The notes under the pieces: model-generated
Told to the model about the DNA's origin: nothing
What the model saw: only the letters and a program-made list of their open reading frames with translations
Databases searched by the model: none
Made by a program: the position numbers and the translations under genes
NCBI GenBank assembly: GCA_951406725.2
Contig: OX597820.1
Location: 115,320,001-115,384,000 of the forward strand
Direction of reading: 5' to 3'
Length of the DNA stretch: 64,000 nucleotides
Source: Octopus vulgaris
Lineage: Eukaryota
Part shown: positions 6,605 to 58,834 of the stretch, piece by piece
How the letters are laid out: every line of letters begins with the position of its first letter
Numbering within the stretch: the first letter of the stretch is position 1

Positions 6605-6945
6605 CATCATCGTTTCGTTTAGCGTCCGCTTTCCATGCTAGCATGGGTTGGACGGTTCAACTGGGGTCTGGGAAGCCAGAAGGCTGCACCAGGCCCAGTC
6701 TGATCTGGCAATGTTTCTACGGCTGGATGCCCTTCCTAACGCCAACCACTCCATGAGTGTAGTGGGTGCTTTTTACGTGCCACCGGCACAGGTGCCAGGC
6801 AAGACTGGCAAACGGCCACGATCGGATGGTGCTTTTTACATGCCACCGGCACGGAGACCAGATGAAGCTGGCAACGGCCACGATCGGATGGTGCTTTTTA
6901 TGTGCCACCGGCACGGGGGCCAGGCAAGGCTGGCAACGGCCAGAC
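6605..6945 (-). mobile_element. RTE-LINE 3' end / derived SINE with ~3 copies of the 61-bp unit
   Basis: (CAT)n tail, CCATGCTAGCATGG, GGATGCCCTTCCTAACGCCAACC core; same family as 20175-22430. More than 15 related copies in window. Confidence 0.85.
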
Positions 6946-20174: not shown

Positions 20175-22430
20175 ATCATCATCATCATCATCATCATCAT
20201 TTAGCGTCCGTTTTCCATGCTAGCATGGGTTGGACGGTTTAACTGGGGTCTGTGAAGCCGGAAGGCTTCATCAGGCCCAGTCAGATTTGGCAGTGTTTCT
20301 ACGGCTGGATGCCCTTCCTAACGCCAACCACTCCGTGAGTGTAGTGGGTCCTTTTTACGTGCCACCTGCACAGGTGCCAGACAGAGCTGGCAAAAGGCCA
20401 CGAACGGATGGTGTTTTTCGTGCCACCGGCACGGGGGCCAGGCGAGGCTGGCAACGGACACGAGCGGATGGTGCTTTTACGTGCTACCGGCACGGGGGCC
20501 AGGCGAGGCTGGCAACGGACACGAGCGGATGGTGCTTTTACGTGCTACCGGCACGGGTGCCAGGCGAGGCTGGCAACGGACACGAGTGGATGGTGCTTTT
20601 ACGTGCTACCGGCACGGGGGCCACGCGAGGCTGGCAACGGACACGAGCGGATGGTGCTTTTACGTGCTACCGGCACGGGGGCCAGGCGAGGCTGGCAACG
20701 GACACGAGCGGATGGTGCTTTTACGTGCTACCGGCACGGGGGCCAGGCGAGGCTGGCAACGGACACGAGCGGATGGTGCTTTTACGTGCTACCGGCACGG
20801 GGTCCACGCGAGGCTGGCAACGGACACGAGCGGATGGTGCTTTTACGTGCTACCGGCACGGGGGCCACGCGAGGCTGGCAACGGACACGAGCGGATGGTG
20901 CTTTTACGTGCTACCGGCACGGGGGCCACTCGAGGCTGGCAACGGACACGAGTGGATGGTGCTTTTACGTGCTACCGGCACGGGGGCCACGCGAGGCTGG
21001 CAACGGACACGAGCGGATGGTGCTTTTACGTGCTACCGGCACGGGGGCCACGCGAGGCTGGCAACGGACACGAGCGGATGGTGCTTTTACGTGCTACCGG
21101 CACGGGGGCCACGCGAGGCTGGCAACGGACACGAGCGGATGGTGCTTTTACGTGCTACCGGCACGGGGGCCACGCGAGGCTGGCAACGGACACGAGCGGA
21201 TGGTGCTTTTACGTGCTACCGGCACGGGGGCCAGGCGAGGCTGGCAACGGACACGAGCGGATGGTGCTTTTACGTGCTACCGGCATGGGGGCCAGGCGAG
21301 GCTGGCAATGGACACGAGCGGATGGTGCTTTTACGTGCTACCGGCACGGGGGCCACGCGAGGCTGGCAACGGACACGAGTGGATGGTGCTTTTACGTGCT
21401 ACCGGCACGGGGGCCAGGCGAGGCTGGCAACGGACACGAGCGGATGGTGCTTTTACGTGCTACCGGCACGGGGGCCACGCGAGGCTGGCAACGGACACGA
21501 GCGGATGGTGCTTTTACGTGCTACCGGCACGGGGGCCAGGCGAGGCTGGCAACGGACACGAGCGGATGGTGCTTTTACGTGCTACCGGCACGGGGGCCAT
21601 GCGAGGCTGGCAACGGACACGAGTGGATGGTGCTTTTATGTGCTACCGGCACGGGGGCCAGGCGAGGCTGGCAACGGACACGAGTGGATGGTGCTTTTAC
21701 GTGCTACCGGCACGGGTGCCAGGCGAGGCTGGCAACGGACACGAGTGGATGGTGCTTTTATGTGCTACCGGCACGGGGGCCAGGCGAGGCTGGCAACGGA
21801 CACGAGTGGATGGTGCTTTTACGTGCTACCGGCACAGGTGCCAGGCGAGGCTGGCAACGGACACGAGTGGATGGTGCTTTTATGTGCTACCGGCACGGGG
21901 GCCAGGCGAGGCTGGCAACGGACACGAGCGGATGGTGCTTTTACGTGCTACCGGCACGGGGGCCACGCGAGGCTGGCAACGGACACGAGCAGATGGTGCT
22001 TTTACGTGCTACCGGCACGGGGGCCAGGCAGGGCTGGCAACGGACACGAACGGATGGTGCTTTTACATGCTACCAGCACGGGGGCCAGGCGAGGCTGGCA
22101 ACAGACACGAGTGGATGGTGCTTTACGTGCCTATGGCACAGATGCCAGGCGAGGCTGGCAACGGACAAACGATCGGATGGTTCGCTTAACCACAGCTGCA
22201 ATTTCCACTGATGTTGATTTGGTTTGATTTTGACTGTTCTCACTGGTCTTGCCGGGTCTTCTCACGCACAGCATACTTCCATAGGTCTCGGTCTCTAGTC
22301 ATTTCCTTGGTGAGACCTAAAGTTCGAAGGTCGTGCTTCACCACCTCGTCCCAGGTTTTCCTGGGTCTACCTCTTCCACAGGTTCCCTCAACTGCTAGAG
22401 TGTGGCACTTTTGCACACAACTATCTTCAC
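20175..22430 (-). mobile_element. RTE-clade LINE 3' fragment (ORF end + 3' UTR + (GAT)n tail) carrying expanded array
   Basis: VEGTCGRGRPRKTWDEVVKHDLRTLGL..DRDLWKYAV* at 22240-22430; tail at ~20175. Confidence 0.9.
20345..22180. repeat. GC-rich 61-bp tandem array, ~30 units
   Basis: Consensus CGGATGGTGCTTTTACGTGCTACCGGCACGGGGGCCAGGCGAGGCTGGCAACGGACACGAG. Confidence 0.97.
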
Positions 22431-23790: not shown

Positions 23791-24600
23791 CATCATCATC
23801 ATCATCATTGTTGTTTAACGTCCGCTTTCCATGCTGGCATGGGTTGGATCGTTTGACTGAGGGCTGGCAAGCCAGAATGCTGTACCAGGCTCCAATCTGA
23901 TCTAGCAAGGTTTCTACAGCTGGATGCTCTTCCTAACACCAACCACTCCAAGAGTATAGTGCGTACTTTCTATGTGACACCGGCACAAGGGCTAGTCAGG
24001 CAGCACTGGCAATGACCACGCTTGAATGGTGCTTTTTACATGCCACCGGCATGGGAGCCAGTCAGGTGGTACTGGCAATGACCCACACTTGAATGGTGCT
24101 TTTAACGTGCCACTGGCATGGGTGCCAGTCAGGCGGTACTGGCATTGACCACGACAATGACTTCACTTGACTCAACAGGTCTTCGCAAGCACAGTTTATT
24201 GACCAATGATTGAAAGGTACTCTTAAATGGGCTGGTTATGCTGCACTGGCATAGGCCATGGTTATGGTCTTCTCAAGCACAGCGTATCTCCAAAGGTCAT
24301 GGTCACTTGCCATCGCCTCCATGAAGCCCAATGTTCGAAGGTCGTGCTTCACCACCTCATCCCATGTCTTCCTGGACTCCCTCTTTCACAAGTTCCTTCC
24401 ATTGTTAGGGAGTGACACTTCTCCACACAGCTGTCTTCACCCATATGCAACATATGACCATACCAGTGCAGTCGTCTCTCTCTTGCACACCACATTTGAT
24501 GCTTCTTATGTCCAACTTTTCTCTCCGGGCACTTACACTCTGTTGTGTATACACACTGACATTACACATCAAGCGGAGCATACTAGCTTCATTCGTCTTA
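23791..24600 (-). mobile_element. RTE LINE 3' fragment, older copy
   Basis: NEASMLRLMCNVS..REKLDIRSIKCGVQER; 3' UTR with diverged 61-bp units. Confidence 0.85.
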
Positions 24601-39941: not shown

Positions 39942-40673
39942 CTGAAACAATTAGAATTTATCAAAGATTATTCATGTCAGATGATACGAATTAATATTCC
40001 TTAGTTCCACCATAACACACTGGGATATTAAAGTACAACTAAAAACTTTGTCAACATATTCTGGAGCATGAGACATTCTGGCACAGTCCTTTTAGCACCA
40101 CCTAAATGGCATCACTCATTTCTCTCAGTGTTTCAGCATCTAGTTATTCATGTATGTATGTGTAAAGTCTCTCTCACTCACTCTGTATGTGTATATTTCT
40201 GTATGTGCATGCATGTATGTGTATGTTTGCCTCCAGCACCCAAAGGCAGTGTCCACTCAGCCATGCCAAATCACTAGCGCCCAAATAGCAGTGCCAAACT
40301 GTCTCATTCCAACATATGATGGTTCGGCGGCTTTCCCCATCCTTAATTGCTTCATCTTTCAGGCTGCTGTCAAATCAGCTGGACCCTCTGTTGGATCTAC
40401 AATGTTGGGTCCACTCTAAGGCAAATCAGCTTTGCAGAGCCTGTCTCTTTCCAATCTATAACCTTCCTAGGGCCAATCATTTTACATGACACATGTGGGG
40501 TCACCAAGAAACTTGTAAGACAAGACCCTTCAACTGAGGTGTTGGGGGGGTATGTGAGGAAGGTGGCTTTATCCCAGGTGATGAGATGTGACAGTATGAT
40601 AGAGGGACAGGAACAAATGTTTTGCCATAGGGAAGATACATGACTACCTCCAATACATATATAATATAATATA

Positions 40674-41239
40674 CGAGGGTGAGTCAAAAAGTAATGCTAT
40701 TTTGTTTAGGACAGGTATAATTACCAACACAGGAACATGTATCATACATCAAAGTGAAGCTGATCCTCTGTGGATCACATCCCTACATCTCAACATAGTC
40801 ACCGTTTATCTCAATAGCAATGTTCCACCTTCAAATGAGAGCATGTATCCCTGTCCCGTAAAATTCTGTTGACTGTTCTTTGAGCCACTTCTTCACTACA
40901 GTTTTCAGTTCCTCGTCACCGGAATAATTTAGCACCTTCAGACTATCATCTCTTCGGCCCCATGAAAGAGGGTTTGAGAGGCAAATCATTCCAGTGACGA
41001 GGAAGTGAAAACTGTAGTGAAGAAGTGGTTCAAACAACAGACAACAGAATTTTACAGGGCAGGGATACATGCTCTCATTCGAAGGTGGAACATTGCTATT
41101 GAGAGAAACAGTGACTATGTTGAGAAGTAGGGATGTGATCCACAGAGAACCAGCTTCATTTTGATGTATGATACATGTTCCTGTGTTGGTAATTATGCCT
41201 GTCCTAAACAAAATGGCATTACTTTTTGACTCACCCTCG
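40674..41239. mobile_element. Mariner-derived fold-back element with TA TSD
   Basis: TA|CGAGGGTGAGTCAAAAAGTAATG..CATTACTTTTTGACTCACCCTCG|TA; ~250-bp arms; LAPSDYHLFGPMKEGLRG..RWNIAIERNSDYVEK* transposase tail. Confidence 0.92.
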
Positions 41240-41666
41240 TAGATGCAGGTATAGCTGTAGAACTTTGTTTCCCAACCACATAGTTCCAAGTTCAATCCCA
41301 CTGCATGGCACCTTGGGCAACTGTTTTTTGTTTTTTTTTTGGTGGGGCTGACCAAATCTTTGAGTGGATTTGATAAACAGAAACTGAAAAAAGCCTGTTC
41401 TACATGTGTGTTTGTGTGTGTGCATGTATTTGACCCCCATTACACCTCTTGACAACTGGTGTTGGTTTGTTTACATCCCTAACCCTAACTTAGCAGTTCA
41501 GCACAAGACACCAACAGAATAAATACCAGGTTTTGAAGAAAAGGTGCTGGGGTCAATTTGTTTGACTAAAAAGTCTTCAAGGTGGTGCCCCAGAATGGCC
41601 AGAATCAAACAACTGAAACAAGAAGGTAAAAGAGAATGTAACAGAATCCACAAAGCCATACGATAC

Positions 41667-48671: not shown

Positions 48672-49597
48672 TATATAAGAATATTTTGCGTAATAAGATA
48701 AAAAAAACCAAGGCTGTGTAGATATTAGATATCTGTGTTTATAGATAGAAGGTCATACAGCCGTTTCTCGGATATTTATTAATTATATCCCTTCATCAGA
48801 GATGGTGTGAGAGGATAGTTAAGTCATAGTTTAGATGTGATACAAAATAGAGAGCGAGGTGGAGGAAAGAAAATAGATGTAAGATATGTATGGGTATTGA
48901 AGTTGTAAATCCATTTTTTAGGCATAATGGTATATATGCAATATTCCAATATCCTTTGAGTAAAGTCCAAAATTCCAGCAGAGTTTAATATGAGTCATTC
49001 CAAATATAGAGTTTATAAGCAATGTAAGATTCCCTTAGTGAGATCCTGCAGATTTTTAAACTTGGTCGTTTTCTTTCTCTTTCTTCACTCCTCTCTTCCT
49101 GTTTTCGATTTGACCTTACTAATACACTCCCTATTTCTAGGTCACTTTAAATAAAAACCTTTGACTCTGCAACACTGTATATAAATTCCCTACTGGGAAT
49201 GACCAAGTTTAAAAATCGGCTGGTTCTCATTCATAAGGGAATCTTACATTGCTTATAAACTCTATATTTGGAAGGACTCATATTAAACTCTGCTGGAATT
49301 TTGGACTTTACTCAAAGGATATTGGAATATTGCATACATACCATTATGCCTAAAAAATGGATTTACAACTTCAATATCCATACATATCTTACATCTATTT
49401 TCTTTCCTCCACCTCACTCCCTATTTTGTATCACATCTAAACCAACTATGGCTTAATTTTTCCTCTCACACCATCTCCGATGAAGGGATATAATTAATGA
49501 ATATCCTAGAAACGGCTGTATGACCTTCTATCTATAAACGCTCTAATATCTACACAGCCTTGGTTTTTTATCTTATTACGCAAAAAATTCTTATATA
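48672..49597. mobile_element. Fold-back Penelope-like element, ~400-bp arms, HHR-like core in each arm
   Basis: Arms 48672-49070 / 49198-49597; C(T/C)GATGA-AGGGATA..TATCC-GAAA-CGGCTG-TA. Confidence 0.8.
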
Positions 49598-49788: not shown

Positions 49789-50695
49789 GTATATATATAT
49801 GTATATATATACATACAGAAGATGTGAGGAATTTAGGTCAAGGTAACCCAAACTAATAAGTATGCATTCTGAGTGCTCCAAATGGTGTGTAACCAAAATC
49901 CCATTTAGAGCAATGGCTGGAGTTGTGGCCGTGAGAATGTTCTGTTTGAAAACAACTGGCGGTTTCCCATTGAATCAGTAATTATTAGTCAAAGTAGTGA
50001 GGAAGGCAAACAATTAGTCACAGCAGAACTACGACAATTAAATTCATTTAATTCAATCTACTATAACAATACTCTTGTCTTTTTTCTTCTCTCCTCATAG
50101 AATTTTTTGATATTAAAGTTATTATCTATTATTATACATCTGTTCTTTTTTATAAACATGACTCTGTTCTCAAATACCTGACACACCCTGTGTATGTGTG
50201 CATATATATATATTAGTTACTCAACTGTACAAAAATTACGTCATGTATAGAATGGTGTGATGTCAGGTCAGAATAATAAAAGAGGAAACTACATGAAAAG
50301 ATCTGACTTGCTTTTCTATTAAACTTAACATTTTATGAATCTGAGTCTGTTTAGTTGTTAACAGCTTCAAGAAATACTATTTTAAGAAATAAAAGAAAAT
50401 ATACCCAGCCACAACAATAAGGGCTACATACATACATACATACATAGAAACAAACATACATGCATACATAGAAACATACATACACACATACATACATGCA
50501 TACACACACACATACATATATACACATAAATACACACACACACACACACAGATACATACATACATAGCATACATACATAGATGCTCACAGATATACATAT
50601 ATACACACACATACATACATACATAGATGCATACACACACATACATATACATATATACACATACACACACACACACACACATACATACATACATA

Positions 50696-50931
50696 CAGGG
50701 TGGCCCAAAAGTAGTTTTACAGGTATCACGTAGGCACTTTAAATCTCTTTTAAAACATTTTATTACATTTAAATTTCCATCCTACAAACTGAAAAGGGAG
50801 CTTGACAAAATTAACTAAATTAGCATAGAATAATGGTTTCATACTTTTTTTATAATTAAGATCTAATCGGTTAATGTATGGATGCGAAAGAGACAGTTGA
50901 ATAACTGTAAGCCTAGTTTTGGGCCACCCTG
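50696..50931. mobile_element. Tc1/mariner-type MITE
   Basis: TA|CAGGGTGGCCCAAAA..TTTTGGGCCACCCTG terminal inverted repeats. Confidence 0.85.
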
Positions 50932-50964
50932 CATATGAACACAAACGCCACAGTCGTTTCTTAC

Positions 50965-51096
50965 CTGAATACAAAACAACATTCCGACAGCAACAATAAC
51001 TCCAACGGCAAGTCCAATTGAAAAAACAACAATAATGAATCCAAGAATGCTCAGCTGTACCATTGGTTCACCATTCATGTGATAAAGGTAATAAGG
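50965..51096 (-). CDS. ZDHHC6: ZDHHC6 exon, TM4 (PYYLYHMNGEPMVQLSILGFIIVVFSIGLAVGVIVAVGMLFCIQ)
   Basis: cag/gtaaga; GLAxGxxxAVGMLFxIQ matches ZDHHC6. Confidence 0.93.
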
Positions 51097-51904
51097 CTGC
51101 AAAGAGAGAAGAGAAAATAATTCACCTTTACTGCCACAAACAATATTACAATTATTATTATTATTATTATTATTCATAGTTTAACGTCTGTTTTCCATGC
51201 TGGCATGGGTTAGACGGTTCGACTAGGGTCTGGGAAGCTTGAGGCTGCACTAGGCCCCAATCTGATCTGGCAGTGTTTCTACAGCTAGACGCCCTTCCTA
51301 ACGCCAACCACTCTGAGAGTATAGTGGGTGCCCTATATGTGCCACCAGCACAAGGGGCCACAGGAGCTGGCATCGACTACGATTGGATGGTGCCTTTCAC
51401 GTGCCACCGGCACAGAAGCCAGTCATAGTGACACTGGCATCGGCCATGTCTGGATGGTGCTTTTTACGTGCTATCAGCACGGGGGTCACAACTACAATTA
51501 CCATTTGATTTGATTTTGATATTGTTGTACTTGACTCAATAGGTGTAGGTTACAGCTGTAGACTCATTTTATTTCCTGGGTCTTCTCAGTCACAGCATAC
51601 CTCCAGAGGTCTCGATCTTTTTTCTCCATTTTTTTATTAATTAAATATATACATATATGTATCATCATCATCATCATTTAATGTCCATTTTCCATGCTGG
51701 CATGGGTTGGACGGTTTGACTGAGGTCTGGAGAGCCAGGAGGCTGCACCAGGTTACAATCTAAACTGGCAATGTTTCTACAGCTAGATTTTCTTCCTAAC
51801 ACCAATCACTCCAAGAGTGTAGCAGATGCTTGTTACGTTCGGATAGTGCTTTTTATGTGCCACTAGCATGGGTGCCAGTCAGGTGGACCTGGCATCTGCT
51901 GTAA

Positions 51905-51917
51905 GTATGTGTATAAA

Positions 51918-51949
<32 letters not shown>

Positions 51950-52134
51950 CATATATATATACATACATACATACATATATATACATACATACATATATAT
52001 ATACATACATACATATATATACATACATACATACATATATATACATACATACATATATATACATACATACATATATATACATACATACATATATATACAT
52101 ACATACATATATATACATACATACATATATATAC

Positions 52135-52167
<33 letters not shown>

Positions 52168-52263
52168 CACATACATACATATATATATATATATACATAC
52201 ATATATATATATACATACATATATATATATACATACATATATATATATACATACATATATATA

Positions 52264-52295
<32 letters not shown>

Positions 52296-52414
52296 CATAT
52301 ATATATATATACATACATACATATATATATACATACATACATATATATATACATACACATATATATATATATACATACATACATACATATACATACATAT
52401 ATACATACATACAT

Positions 52415-52445
<31 letters not shown>

Positions 52446-52496
52446 CATACATACATATATATATATATATACATACATACATATATATATATATAT

Positions 52497-52537
<41 letters not shown>

Positions 52538-52691
52538 TACATACATACATATATATATATATACATAATATATATATACATACATATATATATATATACA
52601 TACATACATATATATATATACATACATACATATATATATATATACATACATACATATATATATATATACATACATACATATATATATATAT

Positions 52692-52736
<45 letters not shown>
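51905..52736. repeat. (TA)n/(CATA)n compound microsatellite
   Basis: Direct reading. Confidence 0.97.
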
Positions 52737-52739
<3 letters not shown>

Positions 52740-52803
52740 TCAGGGTGAGTACTTGATAATTGTAAGCACCTGTATATACCGTTTGGTGGTGTAGGTGGTG
52801 GAG

Positions 52804-54629
52804 TAAATTAATCAAAATAAAAACATGATGCCAAGGATTCAGCGGTACATATGTTTCGGGCCTTTATTAGACGGATTTATAACAATGCATAATGTGGCTA
52901 TTCTTCAGCTGCGCAACTACTACCTCAAGGACATGTATTACATCAAAAATTCTACGTTGGGGATGCAAATCCTCTCATTCGCGTATGACACAATGCGGCA
53001 ACAGCATAAAAATGAAGCGTCCATCTCGTCCTTCTCTCAATGTAGAATGAGGAAGTTTGGATGTTGAGGTAATATAAATAAATGAATAAATAAATATATA
53101 CATATATAAGTACAGACAGACGTGAAGGAACCTGGTAATAAGAGCAAATAGGGATAAAGATGGAGGGGCGAGAATACAGGACGAAGGATAAAAATATATA
53201 AAAAGTGTAAGTATAGAAAAATATAAAAATGTAGAGTATAAAGATATAAAGAGATATAAAAATATTAAAAAATATAAATGAATATAAAGGTATAAAGTTA
53301 TAAAAAAATAAAATTAAAAATAAAAACAAGGATAAGGGATATATAGTAGTTACGGACCAAACATGGTGGTCAGGAAAATGACAAATTCTGGTTGTAGAAG
53401 CTTTGGGTGTCATAAATCAACCGGGGCGTCTGGGGACCTAGTGTATTGTAAATTAGAGTTGTTGAGCCGCTTATCTAGTTCTTCGTAACGTATTAAGTGG
53501 TCATCATGTACATACGTATACGCCTGGATACATACACCATATACATGCGCACATATATGCAACTACACGCATACAAGCATACATACGTACTCTCGTATAA
53601 ACATATACAGATATATATGGAAAAAGGCGCATGTAGTTGGGTACACGAACCGACGCGCATACGTACGTACGTACATACATACACTCACATGCGTTCATAT
53701 AGGTGTAAGTGCGAGTGTGCCTATATGAACGCATGTGAGTGTATGTATGTACGTACATATGCGCGTCGGTTCGTGTACCCAACTACATGCGCCTTTTTCC
53801 ATATATATCTGTATATGTTTACACGAGAGTACGTATGTATGATTGTAGTTGCGTATGCGTGCGTATATGTGCGCGTGTATATGGGTGTATGTATCCAGGC
53901 GTGTATGTATGTACATGATGACCACTTAATACGTTACGAAGAACTAGATAAGCGGCTCAACAACTCTAATTTACAATACACTAGGTCCCCAGACGCCCCG
54001 GTTGATTTACGACACCCAAAGCTTCTACAACCAGAATTTGTCATTTTCCTGACCACCATGTTTGGTCCGTAACTACTATATATCCCTTATCCTTGTTTTT
54101 TATTTTTTATTTTATTTTTTTATAACTTTATACCTTTATATTCATTTATATTTTTTTATATTTTTTAATATTTTTTTATATCTCTTTATATCTTTATACT
54201 CTACATTTTTATATTTTTCTATACTTACACTTTTTATATATTTTTTTATCCTTCGTCCTGTATTCTTGCCCCTCCATCTTTATCCCAATTTGCTCTTATT
54301 ACCAGGTTCCTTCACGTCTGTCTGTACTTATATATGTATATATTTATTTATTCATTTATTTATATTACCTCAACATCCAAACTTCCTCATTCTACATTGA
54401 GAGAAGGACGAGATGAACGCTTCATTTTTATGCTGTTGCCGCATTGTGTCATACGCGAATGAGAGGATTTGCATCCCCAACGTAGAATTTTTGATGTAAT
54501 ACATGTCCTTGAGGTAGTAGTTGTGCGCGGCTGAAGAAGGCCACATTATGCATTGTTATAAATCCGTCTAATAAAGGCCCGAAACATATGTACCGCTGAA
54601 TCCTTGGCATCATGTTTTTATTTTGATTA

Positions 54630-54634
<5 letters not shown>
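52804..54634. mobile_element. 1.83-kb near-perfect palindrome with a terminal HHR in each arm
   Basis: Arms 52804-53703 / 53720-54634, 16-nt loop; HHR at 54527-54596 (+) and 52842-52912 (-). Confidence 0.9.
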
Positions 54635-54674
<40 letters not shown>

Positions 54675-55187
54675 CATATATATATACATACATACATACA
54701 TATACATGCATGCACACACACCCACACACACACCAACAGCTGCATCCTGGCTTCATTCAGTTGATAAAAATCAAGTATTCAAAATTTATGATTAAAAGTT
54801 TAACTGATTTTATACCAACCCGGCTGAAACCGGCTCTGGCTCTGTAGTACAAATGTCTTGTTTTCATAAGTTTTGAATTAAAATCTTCCACCAAACCTTA
54901 GTCATAATTTATGTTCCTAACACTAGCTTAATGATAACTAAGTCATTTTTCTTTGTTGTATTTAAAATTAATTGAAAGAAACACAGAGCATCTCAACAGA
55001 AATACAGTAACGAAAGGGTTAAGGATTTTAGCAGACTTCTCTCTCTGTATGTGTGCGTGTACACACACACAGAAAACTAGATATCAGTAATTCTCTAAAA
55101 ACTCTCCAGTTGTCCCTATAAACAGTAATTCAATACTCCTCAAACAGTCCTGCGAACGTTCATCTAGCAATCTTTCAACAGACTTTT

Positions 55188-55936
55188 TAATGATGATGGT
55201 GATGATGATAAAGATGGTGACAGTGATGATGATGACAATGATGAAAAAGATGGTGATGATGATGATGACAATGATAATGATGAGTGATGGTGATGATGAT
55301 GATGGTAATGAAGATGATGATGATGATGAAGTCATGTAACAACAGTCTTTTGACTGTCATTCTAACAATCTCCAGCAGACTTCTAAGTTTTATAAGAGAC
55401 ACACTCTTGTAATTAACAGCATGTCTAATAAACCTTTCACTAATTATTACATCTGAAACCAATTATTATATAATTGGAATGATTTCTCACATAAAAAGTA
55501 TCATCCGTGCTGGCGCCACAAAAGGCACGTGTGCCAGTGCCATAGAGAAAAGGGGACTGATGCCACATAGGAAGCACTCATGATGGTGCCACATAAAAGG
55601 CACCCACTACACTCTGTAAAGTGGTTGGCATGTTAGGAAGGGCCTCTAGCTGTAGAAAGCATGCCAAAGCAGACAATTGGGGCCTGGGTGAAGTTCTCTG
55701 GTTTGCCAGCATGGAGAACAGATGACGATGATGATGATAAAGATGGTGATGGCGATGATGATGATGATGACAATGATGATAAAAATGGTGATGGTAATGA
55801 TAGAGAGGATGATGATGATAATGATGATGATGATAGCAATGACTGATGATAAAGATGGTGATGGCAATGATGATGGTGATGATGGTGATGATGTGATGAT
55901 GACAATGCTGATGATGACAATGATGATGATGATGAT
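55188..55936. repeat. Degenerate (GAT)n tracts (55188-55335, 55720-55936) around an RTE-SINE remnant
   Basis: Direct reading. Confidence 0.85.
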
Positions 55937-57196
55937 AGTTTTATTTTTTATTAGTTGAATTACTGTGAGCTTGATGTAAATCAATAACAAAGGACTTGTG
56001 AGTTTGTACTGCTACTGTTGACATTGATGTTTGGAAGTGTTGGCTAAGTTTACCTTGCAAAGTGTGTTAAACATTAGTACTCAACAAACACGGAGACAAT
56101 AAACAGTCAAAAACAGGAGTAAAGGAGGAGGGGGAAGAGGAGGAAGAATGAAATGAACAAAGTGAGAAAGAGAGAGGAAGAAAAAGAAAGAGAGAAGATA
56201 AAAATGAGTGAGAGGAAAAGGGAGAGGGGAAGGAAAGAGAAGAGAGAAAGAAAGAAGTAGGGAGTGGAAGGAAGAGGTAGTAAAGAAGAAATAGGCGATG
56301 TGTGATGTGTGTTGAATTTAATATGCCAATGGTAACAGGATCCTTGTGTAGTCAAGTGCTACTTTGTTTCAGAGCCCAGCAGATCTTAATAGGGCAGACA
56401 CACCCAATATTGAGGTGTGTGTTTGCATGTGTGGTGGCGTCGGGGCTTGTTTGTGCAATGAGTCAGGGGGAAAATTTCTTTAGACAAATATTCCTTACTA
56501 AAAATTTTTGGCTTTTCCCTAATTTTGTCAAATTTCTGTTAAATATATATAAATTACAGAGGTGCAGATATGGCTGTGCAGTGAAGAAGTGTGTGTGTGT
56601 GTGTGTGGTTCAAAATTATGCAACAAACGAGAAACAAAGGGAGACAGGTGAGGAAACAATAAACAAGGTGTAATACTTTGATACTCAGGTAAAATGAGAG
56701 AAGTCTTTGACATTTCCTGCCTATGTTCTTCTACAGAAAAGAACAAGGAGAGAAAGCAGATGGGAAGAGGAAAAAAAACAGAGAGAATATATATATATCC
56801 CTTTCGAAATTACCCTTAATAGTGGTTTGTAGTTTAACTACTCTTTCTAGCGAGTCAGATGTCCTGTTATGGCCATTTCTTATGTGTTTAAATGCACACT
56901 GTATTTTTATATGAATAATATATAGTCTATTGACTAATCTTTCCTTCTCGCTACACCACTGGTAGCAAAGAATTTTTCTTAAAATTTTTGCTACCCTAAG
57001 ATTTATTAATATATATATACAAAATAAGAAAATGATTTCTTTCAATCATCAACTTCCAGATAATACCAATTCATATGATTTATTAACTAATTATTTAGAT
57101 TAAATAGGAACATCCAAATCCAACAGAATAAGACAGAATAAAACAATATACATCAATAAGTAAGATAATACCATAAGAATAATACATATAAAATGG

Positions 57197-57324
57197 ATCT
57201 TACAGCTGTTTCAGCCTGTAGATAAGAGTATCTCATTATGCCCATATTAGTCAGATGTATTGAGGTAATATGCAGTTAAAAATGAGTTACTTATATATAC
57301 ATATCTCAAGGCCTCATCAGAGAT
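57197..57324 (-). ncRNA. Type-I hammerhead ribozyme motif with long stem-II insert
   Basis: ATCT-CTGATGA-GGCCT(~90 nt)AGGCT-GAAA-CAGCTG-TA-AGAT; inside an element with short inverted ends (~57016-57075 / 57605-57675). Confidence 0.78.
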
Positions 57325-57877
57325 TATAAAGTACAATTATAAAGATATAAAATGCAAATATGAATATTAAACAAGGTACACATATACAAGAATATGCATA
57401 TATACATATAAGTGTATATACATATACATATATATAAGTATATACATAATAATATACATACACATAAGGTTACAGTTAATCAGATCTATATACTGGAATA
57501 TACATATATATCCACATCGAAGTGTACATATACAAAGTCCAAAGTTCATTGTATTACATTACTAAAAACTATTATTATTATTATTAATAATACCAATAAA
57601 GGAATATGTGTGAATTGGTATTATCTGTAAGTTGATGATTGAAAGAAATCTATTCCTCCATTTTCTTATTTTGTGTTATGAATTTGCGGTAAAACATTTT
57701 ACCTTCGCCCATATAATACAATAAATGAATTAATTGCATTGCAATTCTTAGCATTTATGTATTAGCCTTCTGGGTACTTTACTGGCAGTATATTGGATAA
57801 ATGATATCCCATAGTGGGTTACACTCATAACCCCTATCTCACTTTGTACTTTTAATATATATATATATATATATATA

Positions 57878-58730
57878 GTGAGAATTTACAAAAGAAACAA
57901 AAGATGAAGACAAGTGGTGTAAAAAACAAACAGATGTATTAGTTTAATGCTCGGGAAATGAGAAAGTCTTTTACGTTTCGAGCCTATGTTCTTCAACAGA
58001 AAGGAACACTGAAATGAACAGGGAGAGAAAATAATAATAGTTTAGTGGCTAGGGATCTATCATGGCAAATGCCGAACAGAGGAATCACACAGGAGAGCTC
58101 GGAAGAAGGGGAGATAATAAAGTAGAGGTGATCCTAAAACGAAGGTGCACGTGTGTATGTGAGAGTGTGTATGTGCATGTGGAAGGGGGCTGGTGACATT
58201 GACGTGTGCATGTGTAGGTGTGTGGATGATAGTGTAGGTGCTGGGAAGTGGTCAGTGCTAGTGTGTGCAGGGTGGTGTGATGTGGTGTGGTATGGTGGTG
58301 TGGTGTGATGGTGTGAGGTGTGGTGGTGTTGGGATGGGGAAGGTGAGAGTGGGGGAAGCGAGGGTGGTGGTCTAAAGGATGGGGTGGGATGAGATGTATA
58401 GGGATAGTGGGGTTGGAATGTGTAGGGGTAGGGTAACGCAGGAGGGGGTGATGATGAAGGGAGAGGGTGGAAGGGAGAAGGTGGGTAGGAGTGAAGAGAG
58501 GAAGTGGGTGCCTGAACAAGATAGAAGAGGTGGGTGGGAGGAAGCAGGTGTGAGAGGAAGAGAGGAGAGAAGAGGAAGGTTAGATGAAAAGGGGAGGAGA
58601 GTTGAGCCCATGTGGTGCAAAAGAGCTAAGAGAGAAGATTAATCTCTGCTCACGGCAAAGATGGGAGTCTGAATGATCCCTGTGCAAGGACAATCTGAAG
58701 ACAGACAATTGTTGTTAAGAGTGACCAGGA
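57878..58730 (-). mobile_element. Penelope-like element 3' fragment: GIY-YIG tail + pLTR with HHR variant (57968-58003)
   Basis: GHS*QQLSVFRLSLHRDHSDSHLCREQRLIFSLSSFAPHGLN (E..I..L....P.GLN GIY-YIG end) at 58598-58726. Confidence 0.8.
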
Positions 58731-58834
58731 GCTACAGTAGAAAGGAAGGATCTAGAGCAGAAAGGAAGGATCTACAGTAGAAGGGAAGGAATGACAGTAG
58801 TTGTAAGAGGGTAAGAGTAACTGAAGTGACTTAC

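Follow-up and report, generated by a model that had tools for sequence, protein, structure and literature searches.

The longest inverted repeat in the window (by which we mean the whole 64,000-nucleotide stretch of Octopus vulgaris DNA that was analysed) is a 1.83-kb palindrome, scored at 94.6% over 1856 columns by BLAST, that carries a type I hammerhead ribozyme motif on each strand. This palindrome is very probably a single insertion of a Penelope-like element (PLE) bearing the motifs of the Hydra clade, in which two 5ʹ-truncated copies of the element's 3ʹ end lie head to head within an intronic (TA)n tract. Four observations made for the insertion carry this reading: membership in a repeat family, linkage of that family to a reverse transcriptase-endonuclease (RT-EN) open reading frame (ORF), an asymmetric 3ʹ tail, and (TA)n flanks. 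PLE inversions with a ribozyme on both strands have been published (PMC8557442), and the locus itself is an ordinary truncated insertion. How PLEs form tandem and inverted structures is nevertheless described as an open problem (Craig 2021, PMC8557442), and the family represented in the window offers many young, long-armed examples from which the origin of PLE inversions can be studied. The features of the locus are as follows, where the element assignments carry the strength given above.

51097..58834, minus strand: host intron (7,738 nt) of a DHHC palmitoyltransferase gene; contains the insertion
51926..52736, no strand: left (TA)n/(TACA)n microsatellite; target-site flank
52738..52803, minus strand: putative PLE tail (3ʹ extension), 66 nt, on the left arm only, non-palindromic
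52804..53703, minus strand: left arm; putative 5ʹ-truncated 3ʹ untranslated region (UTR)/pseudo-LTR (pLTR) of a PLE, whose sense strand is the host gene strand
52842..52912, minus strand: damaged type I hammerhead of the left arm; predicted cleavage nucleotide 52846
53704..53719, plus strand: spacer, 16 nt; extra upstream family sequence of the right arm
53720..54634, plus strand: right arm; inverted 5ʹ-truncated copy of the same 3ʹ end, without the tail, ending at the tail start
54527..54596, plus strand: type I hammerhead of the right arm, in the Hydra-clade format; predicted cleavage after 54592
54633..54704, no strand: right (TA)n microsatellite; target-site flank

Arms, flanks and host intron

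Global alignment of the left arm (900 nt) with the reverse complement of the right arm (915 nt) gives 877 matches, 19 internal substitutions and 25 gap columns distributed over 8 indels; a twentieth mismatch, at edge column 52803, is left out of the substitution count. An earlier note on this DNA had described a near-perfect palindrome with arms of about 900 bp and few substitutions, and self-alignment bears this out. The 16-nt loop that it placed between the arms exists as a spacer at the same positions; it is not a purpose-built loop, being ordinary family sequence that continues the right arm upstream. The head-to-head junction itself shows a 1-nt overlap, a G common to both sides. Two ORFs within the arms (86 amino acids at 52807-53067 and 191 amino acids at 53497-54072) were taken to be 3ʹ UTR sequence and set aside.

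At 13 tested sites where the arms differ, it is the left arm that departs from the family letter in six cases and the right arm in seven, which is expected of decay after insertion and not of a fold-back artefact. The insertion is young, with arms about 2% apart that have decayed alike. The (TA)n repeats noted earlier on both flanks directly adjoin the palindrome on the right side only. On the left, the 66-nt tail at 52738-52803 separates the arm from the repeat. This one-sided tail, which was absent from the earlier note, is a hallmark of PLEs, and it contains no significant stem-loop (z -0.66).

The intron is flanked by an exon with a DHHC domain (PF01529, E 2.8e-14 in Pfam), and the exon on its other side is in phase with the DHHC exon. 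The locus therefore lies in an intron of a DHHC gene, as had been claimed. The more specific label, ZDHHC6-like, would follow from an SH3-like C-terminal exon; that exon has no match in Pfam and no usable match in Atlas.

Several other repeats occur in the window. A second palindrome of about 575 bp (89.6%) at 40669-41244 has arms carrying what may be a C-terminal fragment of mariner transposase, and it is probably a MITE-like derivative. Inverted 400-bp arms at 48672-49070 and 49198-49597 (91.9%) enclose a 127-nt spacer and have (TA)n on their right; this pair could be another PLE-type inversion, and no hammerhead pattern was found in it. A tandem array at 20353-22181 holds 30 copies of a GC-rich 61-bp unit with 95% matches; two stretches of short dispersed repeats, at 6765-6942 and 23994-24150, are related to this unit.

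Hammerhead motifs and the predicted rod

The right arm contains a hammerhead motif of the format GCGG / CTGAAGAa / GGCC..GGCC / cGAA / ACATATGT / A / CCGC at the position, and with the predicted cleavage site, that had been proposed. The mirror copy reported for the left arm was likewise found, reading from 52912 to 52842 on the minus strand, and is damaged in the two stems named previously: stem I carries a G>A change and stem II is disrupted. Both copies share the same 8-nt deletion in loop II, in the outer helix II arm, that is present in 0 of 128 other contexts. All elements of a type I hammerhead (CUGANGA and GAAA cores, an NUH site and stems I-III) are present in the right arm and in the family. 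Retention of the core by the family, on which the earlier note had made its reading depend, is seen in 94 of 120 copies with intact stems and core, a proportion biased by the search anchor.

General search and folding methods do not single out these motifs. Within 50000-58000, Rfam returned no hammerhead at E<=1; its 72 matches all fall below the gathering score and none is a ribozyme. They represent miRNA, snoRNA and sRNA classes, mostly on microsatellites and hairpins. When the isolated motif is folded freely, the hammerhead does not form and the stability is no better than that of shuffled sequences (z 0.9 to 2.1), so that folding energy gives no support to the hammerhead. When the fold is constrained to the hammerhead structure, the right copy reaches -10.0 kcal/mol, the left copy -0.5 and a family copy -12.9.

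Sister families, which share about 60% protein identity with the family of the window, carry a hammerhead at the same pLTR position. Stem I varies among them with its pairing preserved, the sequences GCGG/CCGC being replaced by TTAG/CTAA or TCGG/CCGA. Among 11 aligned motifs, all four stem I pairs change on both sides, in 17 cells compared with 6.9 in shuffles; this count is weakened because several rows derive from a pattern that demands stem I pairing and because one row (L219) is misaligned.

A transcript of either strand of the palindrome is predicted to form a rod of about 900 bp, as was suggested earlier, with a folding energy of about -1,525 kcal/mol and 1772 of 1831 nucleotides paired on the plus strand. 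Given its intronic position, this predicted duplex agrees with the further claim that the pre-mRNA of the host gene would hold a very long double-stranded RNA (dsRNA). Every hammerhead nucleotide in the predicted rod is paired with the opposite arm, transcription of either strand makes the antisense arm first, and the host pre-mRNA would carry the damaged left-arm hammerhead in sense orientation. Because they would be buried in the duplex, and because the copy on the pre-mRNA strand is mutated, the hammerheads at this locus are predicted to be inactive. The description of the structure as viroid-like does not hold, since the arms are retrotransposon 3ʹ ends and their hammerheads are buried in the predicted rod; the palindrome is probably inert, a relic and not a viroid-like RNA.

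The dispersed family and its inverted pairs

Searches of the octopus's own genome yielded 1917 first-look candidates with the last 293 nt of the right arm as query (40 scored, 43 matches) and 1998 with the left end plus the tail (40 scored), numbers that are not copy numbers. Many matches to the left end plus tail are 100% identical over 159 nt, and contigs of four sequencing runs contain the family sequence. These similarities indicate that the palindrome arms belong to a young, dispersed retrotransposon family. In many family copies the 66-nt tail comes after the hammerhead region, and in others it is missing.

The coding region was reached through a palindromic copy (L093) whose longer arm includes an endonuclease C-terminus. 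A search with this segment recovered open frames of 835-842 codons in family copies elsewhere in the genome, each with a YRDD motif and, at the C-terminus, a VIY..YIG endonuclease. On the basis of motifs and homologues, the 842-codon frame appears to encode a reverse transcriptase (RT) and a GIY-YIG-type endonuclease. The family ORF itself has no significant RT or GIY-YIG match in Pfam and none in PDB. It has 399 homologues, two of them labelled Argonauta and one named GIY-YIG endonuclease; the domain marks among the homologues are RVT_1 (E 4e-5, on P0041), GIY-YIG (E 0.012, on P0001) and a source label (on P0083).

The ORF and the arms are physically linked. In tandem copies, the hammerhead and tail run directly into the 5ʹ leader of the RT-EN ORF, this pLTR-to-ORF junction being present in several copies, and the likely ATG follows about 85 nt downstream of the tail. 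Two loci (L214 and L215) are complete pLTR-ORF-pLTR units in which hammerhead-bearing repeats flank the ORF on both sides; the distance between the hammerheads is 4,759 nt in L214 and 4,684 nt in L215, and the ORF is broken in both. Identity between the window arms and the 3ʹ ends of ORF-linked copies is 74-89%, and it reaches 94% with one copy (L133) over the last 330-430 nt. Copies with an intact ORF match the arms at no more than about 74% identity in the 3ʹ UTR and thus represent a more distant subfamily, such that the direct donor of the insertion was not found. The family therefore shows the features of an endonuclease-bearing (EN+) PLE, namely a single ORF with RT and C-terminal GIY-YIG domains (in family copies outside the window), hammerhead-bearing pLTRs, an inverted 5ʹ-truncated copy at the 5ʹ end and a tail at one end only.

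To describe the architecture of the family, we used 10-kb segments around 40 tail-bearing copies, 39 obtained with the left-end-plus-tail query and one with the right-arm query, a sample biased toward copies most like the 3ʹ end in the window. A pattern search located an inverted partner upstream in 26 of the 40, and a 27th (L084) that the pattern missed was seen by BLAST. The question of whether other copies are also palindromic is thereby answered in the affirmative, and the persistence of the palindrome in the window, which had been thought notable, is not special, inverted pairs being the majority outcome among the sampled copies. Nearly all partners (25/26) end no more than a few bases from the tail start and give way to TA-type repeats; one carries half the tail and none the whole of it. 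In most of the 40 copies, TA-type repeats are also found at a distance of up to about 20 nt from the tail. Among 26 loci selected by their ORFs, 8 have an inverted pair, and in all 8 the tail is on exactly one arm. The fold-back point and the palindrome length vary from copy to copy, which implies that each insertion makes its palindrome anew instead of inheriting it as a unit.

Some loci depart from the common arrangement. Three of the 14 copies without a partner (L078, L080 and L092) have the same truncation point and the same downstream flank, and thus probably spread inside another repeat rather than as independent insertions. A few copies (L066 and L140) have ends well past the usual tail, at the ORF leader, suggesting that further minor RT start sites exist. 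At L178-L180 (G000:C4:23557630-23561212), short units are clustered in mixed orientation. Each unit joins the hammerhead 3ʹ end, taken from around the cleavage site, to the tail and to some 80 nt from the beginning of the ORF region; the units are possibly products of repeated template jumps. The sister families (L216-L226, e.g. G000:C2:37620313-37624590) contain intact asparagine-rich frames of 940-1090 codons and hammerheads of their own, and they too show the inverted architecture with a tail on one arm.

Origin of the inverted pair and known relatives

In the mechanism that we favour, the RT-endonuclease of the element would cut both strands of the (TA)n tract and prime two cDNAs. Synthesis of one would begin where the 66-nt tail ends, and synthesis of the other where the tail starts. 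Each cDNA would extend for about 900 nt before stopping, and the two growing ends would then be joined. The inversion would put one hammerhead on each strand as a by-product, because each hammerhead is the standard pseudo-LTR ribozyme and the opposite orientation of the two arises from the inversion. A PLE protein has been found to cut and extend both strands of AT-rich DNA, with reverse transcription starting at two internal sites that delimit the tail and without a need for hammerhead cleavage (Frangieh 2024, PMC11167929). The locus, with one arm beginning at the tail end and the other at the tail start, fits these two start sites, as does the rule for the whole family that the tail is on one arm, either arm may be longer and partner arms are alike. 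Priming at two sites on both strands, followed by joining of the cDNAs, is in our estimation the more probable origin, preferred over folding back of a single cDNA.

Fold-back supposes that one cDNA folds back or takes itself as a new template, with copying continuing as far as the tail boundary, a self-priming process that has been inferred from palindromic junctions of rotifer Penelope elements (Arkhipova 2013, PMC3846280). Among 27 pairs, one of them the pair in the window, the arm without the tail is the longer in 11 and the tailed arm in 10, and the remaining 6 have near-equal arms (within 20 nt) where 2.0 are expected by permutation (P 0.0085; 0.007 without the window). This excess, which accompanies a correlation of arm lengths (Spearman 0.57, p 0.002, n=27), is not predicted by simple independent priming and counts against the two-cDNA reading. 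In addition, of the 21 pairs long enough for comparison (6 were dropped as short), 14 have the partner arm as their nearest sequence, and in 20 the partner is nearer than the median other copy. Both arms thus come mostly from one template or source, or were homogenised later, and the loop II deletion common to both window arms points the same way. However, a shared template RNA or subsequent gene conversion would also make partner arms alike, and fold-back alone leaves unexplained why the second arm stops at a fixed tail boundary that is a known RT start site and why either arm can be the longer. We accord fold-back an appreciable chance of being correct, although a lower one than two-site priming.

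Readings that deny a retrotransposon inversion, or that assign the hairpin a function, fare far worse. No public contig bridges the junction, whose letters were skipped as repeat so that placement is blind there, and a fold-back artefact of sequencing or assembly might be suspected on these grounds; yet the substitutions, indels and two-sided departures described above distinguish the arms, whose outer ends differ exactly at the family tail boundary, and the same rule is seen at 26 + 8 other loci, making such an artefact highly improbable. Co-option of the hairpin by the host gene as regulatory dsRNA, for editing or splicing control, draws on the intronic position of the duplex and on the very high hyper-editing and dsRNA potential of octopus (Porath 2017, PMC5625713). 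We regard co-option as very unlikely because the insertion is young and its two arms have decayed alike. A viroid-like or retrozyme-like replicon, in which a ribozyme on each polarity processes a rod or circular RNA, would account for the two-strand motifs and the predicted rod, and animal retrozymes have been reported as PLE derivatives (bioRxiv 10.64898/2026.07.22.740005). Such a replicon is scarcely credible here, given that the locus lacks tandem monomer repeats, the centre and length of the palindrome differ in each copy and so the rod is not inherited as a unit, both hammerheads are buried and one is damaged, and the arms are the 3ʹ ends of an RT-encoding element.

The family is a candidate source of long dsRNA, and in addition to its octopus data the study of Porath 2017 (PMC5625713) describes heavy editing of Penelope in lizard. 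It is conceivable, if doubtful, that the family seeds on the order of a thousand near-perfect palindromes, that those in introns are a major self-renewing source of the dsRNA behind octopod A-to-I hyper-editing, and that the insertions record the second-strand step. In that reading, the palindromes would be so numerous because every insertion event would start two cDNAs on the same template, at two fixed sites. If true, these insertions would preserve a record of the unsolved second-strand step of PLE transposition. Moreover, a two-strand ribozyme rod in an animal genome can be a PLE inversion, and screens for viroid-like RNAs should therefore filter such loci.

The rod of the window resembles those of viroids, viroid-like satellites and non-LTR retrozymes in its hammerhead motif, its predicted fold and the presence of the motif in both polarities. 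Viroids, however, exist as circular or tandem monomers of fixed length with ribozymes able to fold. Non-LTR retrozymes share these properties (bioRxiv 10.64898/2026.07.22.740005), whereas the rod described here is a near-perfect DNA palindrome of variable size that would be made at insertion.

Among PLEs, the family fits the Hydra clade as assigned by motifs. This clade is defined by RWK and DKT motifs, no CCHH, a CxCX5C linker, CxxC and CxH motifs, (TA)n targets and a hammerhead (Craig 2021, PMC8557442). The family ORF contains PADKTG, the linker CNCICASEC, and CQLC and CIH around the conserved E and N, and it lacks the CCHH zinc finger, having a single cysteine between VIY and YIG. The window insertion is flanked by (TA)n. 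The N-terminal motif is RWA in place of RWK, the latter being present in the sister family with ~60% identity. The Neptune and Nematis clades, of which Neptune was the first guess, were rejected because the linker is CxCX5C rather than CX2-5CxxC and CCHH is absent. Hydra hammerheads in the table of Craig 2021 (PMC8557442) have the format of those in the window: stem II is bordered on either side by one additional base, and stem III is short and nearly palindromic. One tabulated element, Penelope-13_HM, likewise combines an inverted 5ʹ-truncated partner with a motif on both strands. The same paper describes PLE insertions as 5ʹ-truncated and tailed at one end, and as frequently joined at the 5ʹ end by a truncated copy in inverse orientation. 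Unlike typical Hydra elements, most of which are <3 kb (a general description, not a diagnostic length), the unit of the family is 4.7 kb with a repeat-rich 3ʹ UTR of about 2 kb; its tail is 66 nt rather than the published 30-40, and its hammerhead has a long helix II arm. The octopus Hydra family Hydra-1_Obim differs in protein and hammerhead when compared by eye. Short strings of the window family were not found in the portions of the Craig 2021 supplement covered, where line breaks could hide matches, and literature searches that covered sources other than bioRxiv supplements retrieved no published account of it.

The hammerheads resemble the minimal type I motifs of PLEs (Cervera and De la Pena 2014, PMC4209133) in their 4-bp helix I, the extra nucleotide before stem II and the short palindromic helix III suited to cleavage of dimers. 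Those minimal hammerheads have low activity in vitro and need dimers, and metazoan PLE hammerheads occur in pairs on opposite strands 100-700 bp apart (PMC4209133). Position 10.1-11.1 is A.C in the window rather than the usual G-C, and mismatches at this position are also present in the published Hydra table. Finally, Poseidon from Anolis (PAc; Frangieh 2024, PMC11167929) belongs to a different clade, and its tail lies inside the start of the ORF, not about 85 nt before the likely ATG as in the family of the window. The lack of a strong stem-loop in the tail of the window is a further difference. PAc nonetheless shares with the family of the window the order of hammerhead followed by tail, an AC-rich tail, an AT-rich target, and a tail whose two ends correspond to the two insertion end points.
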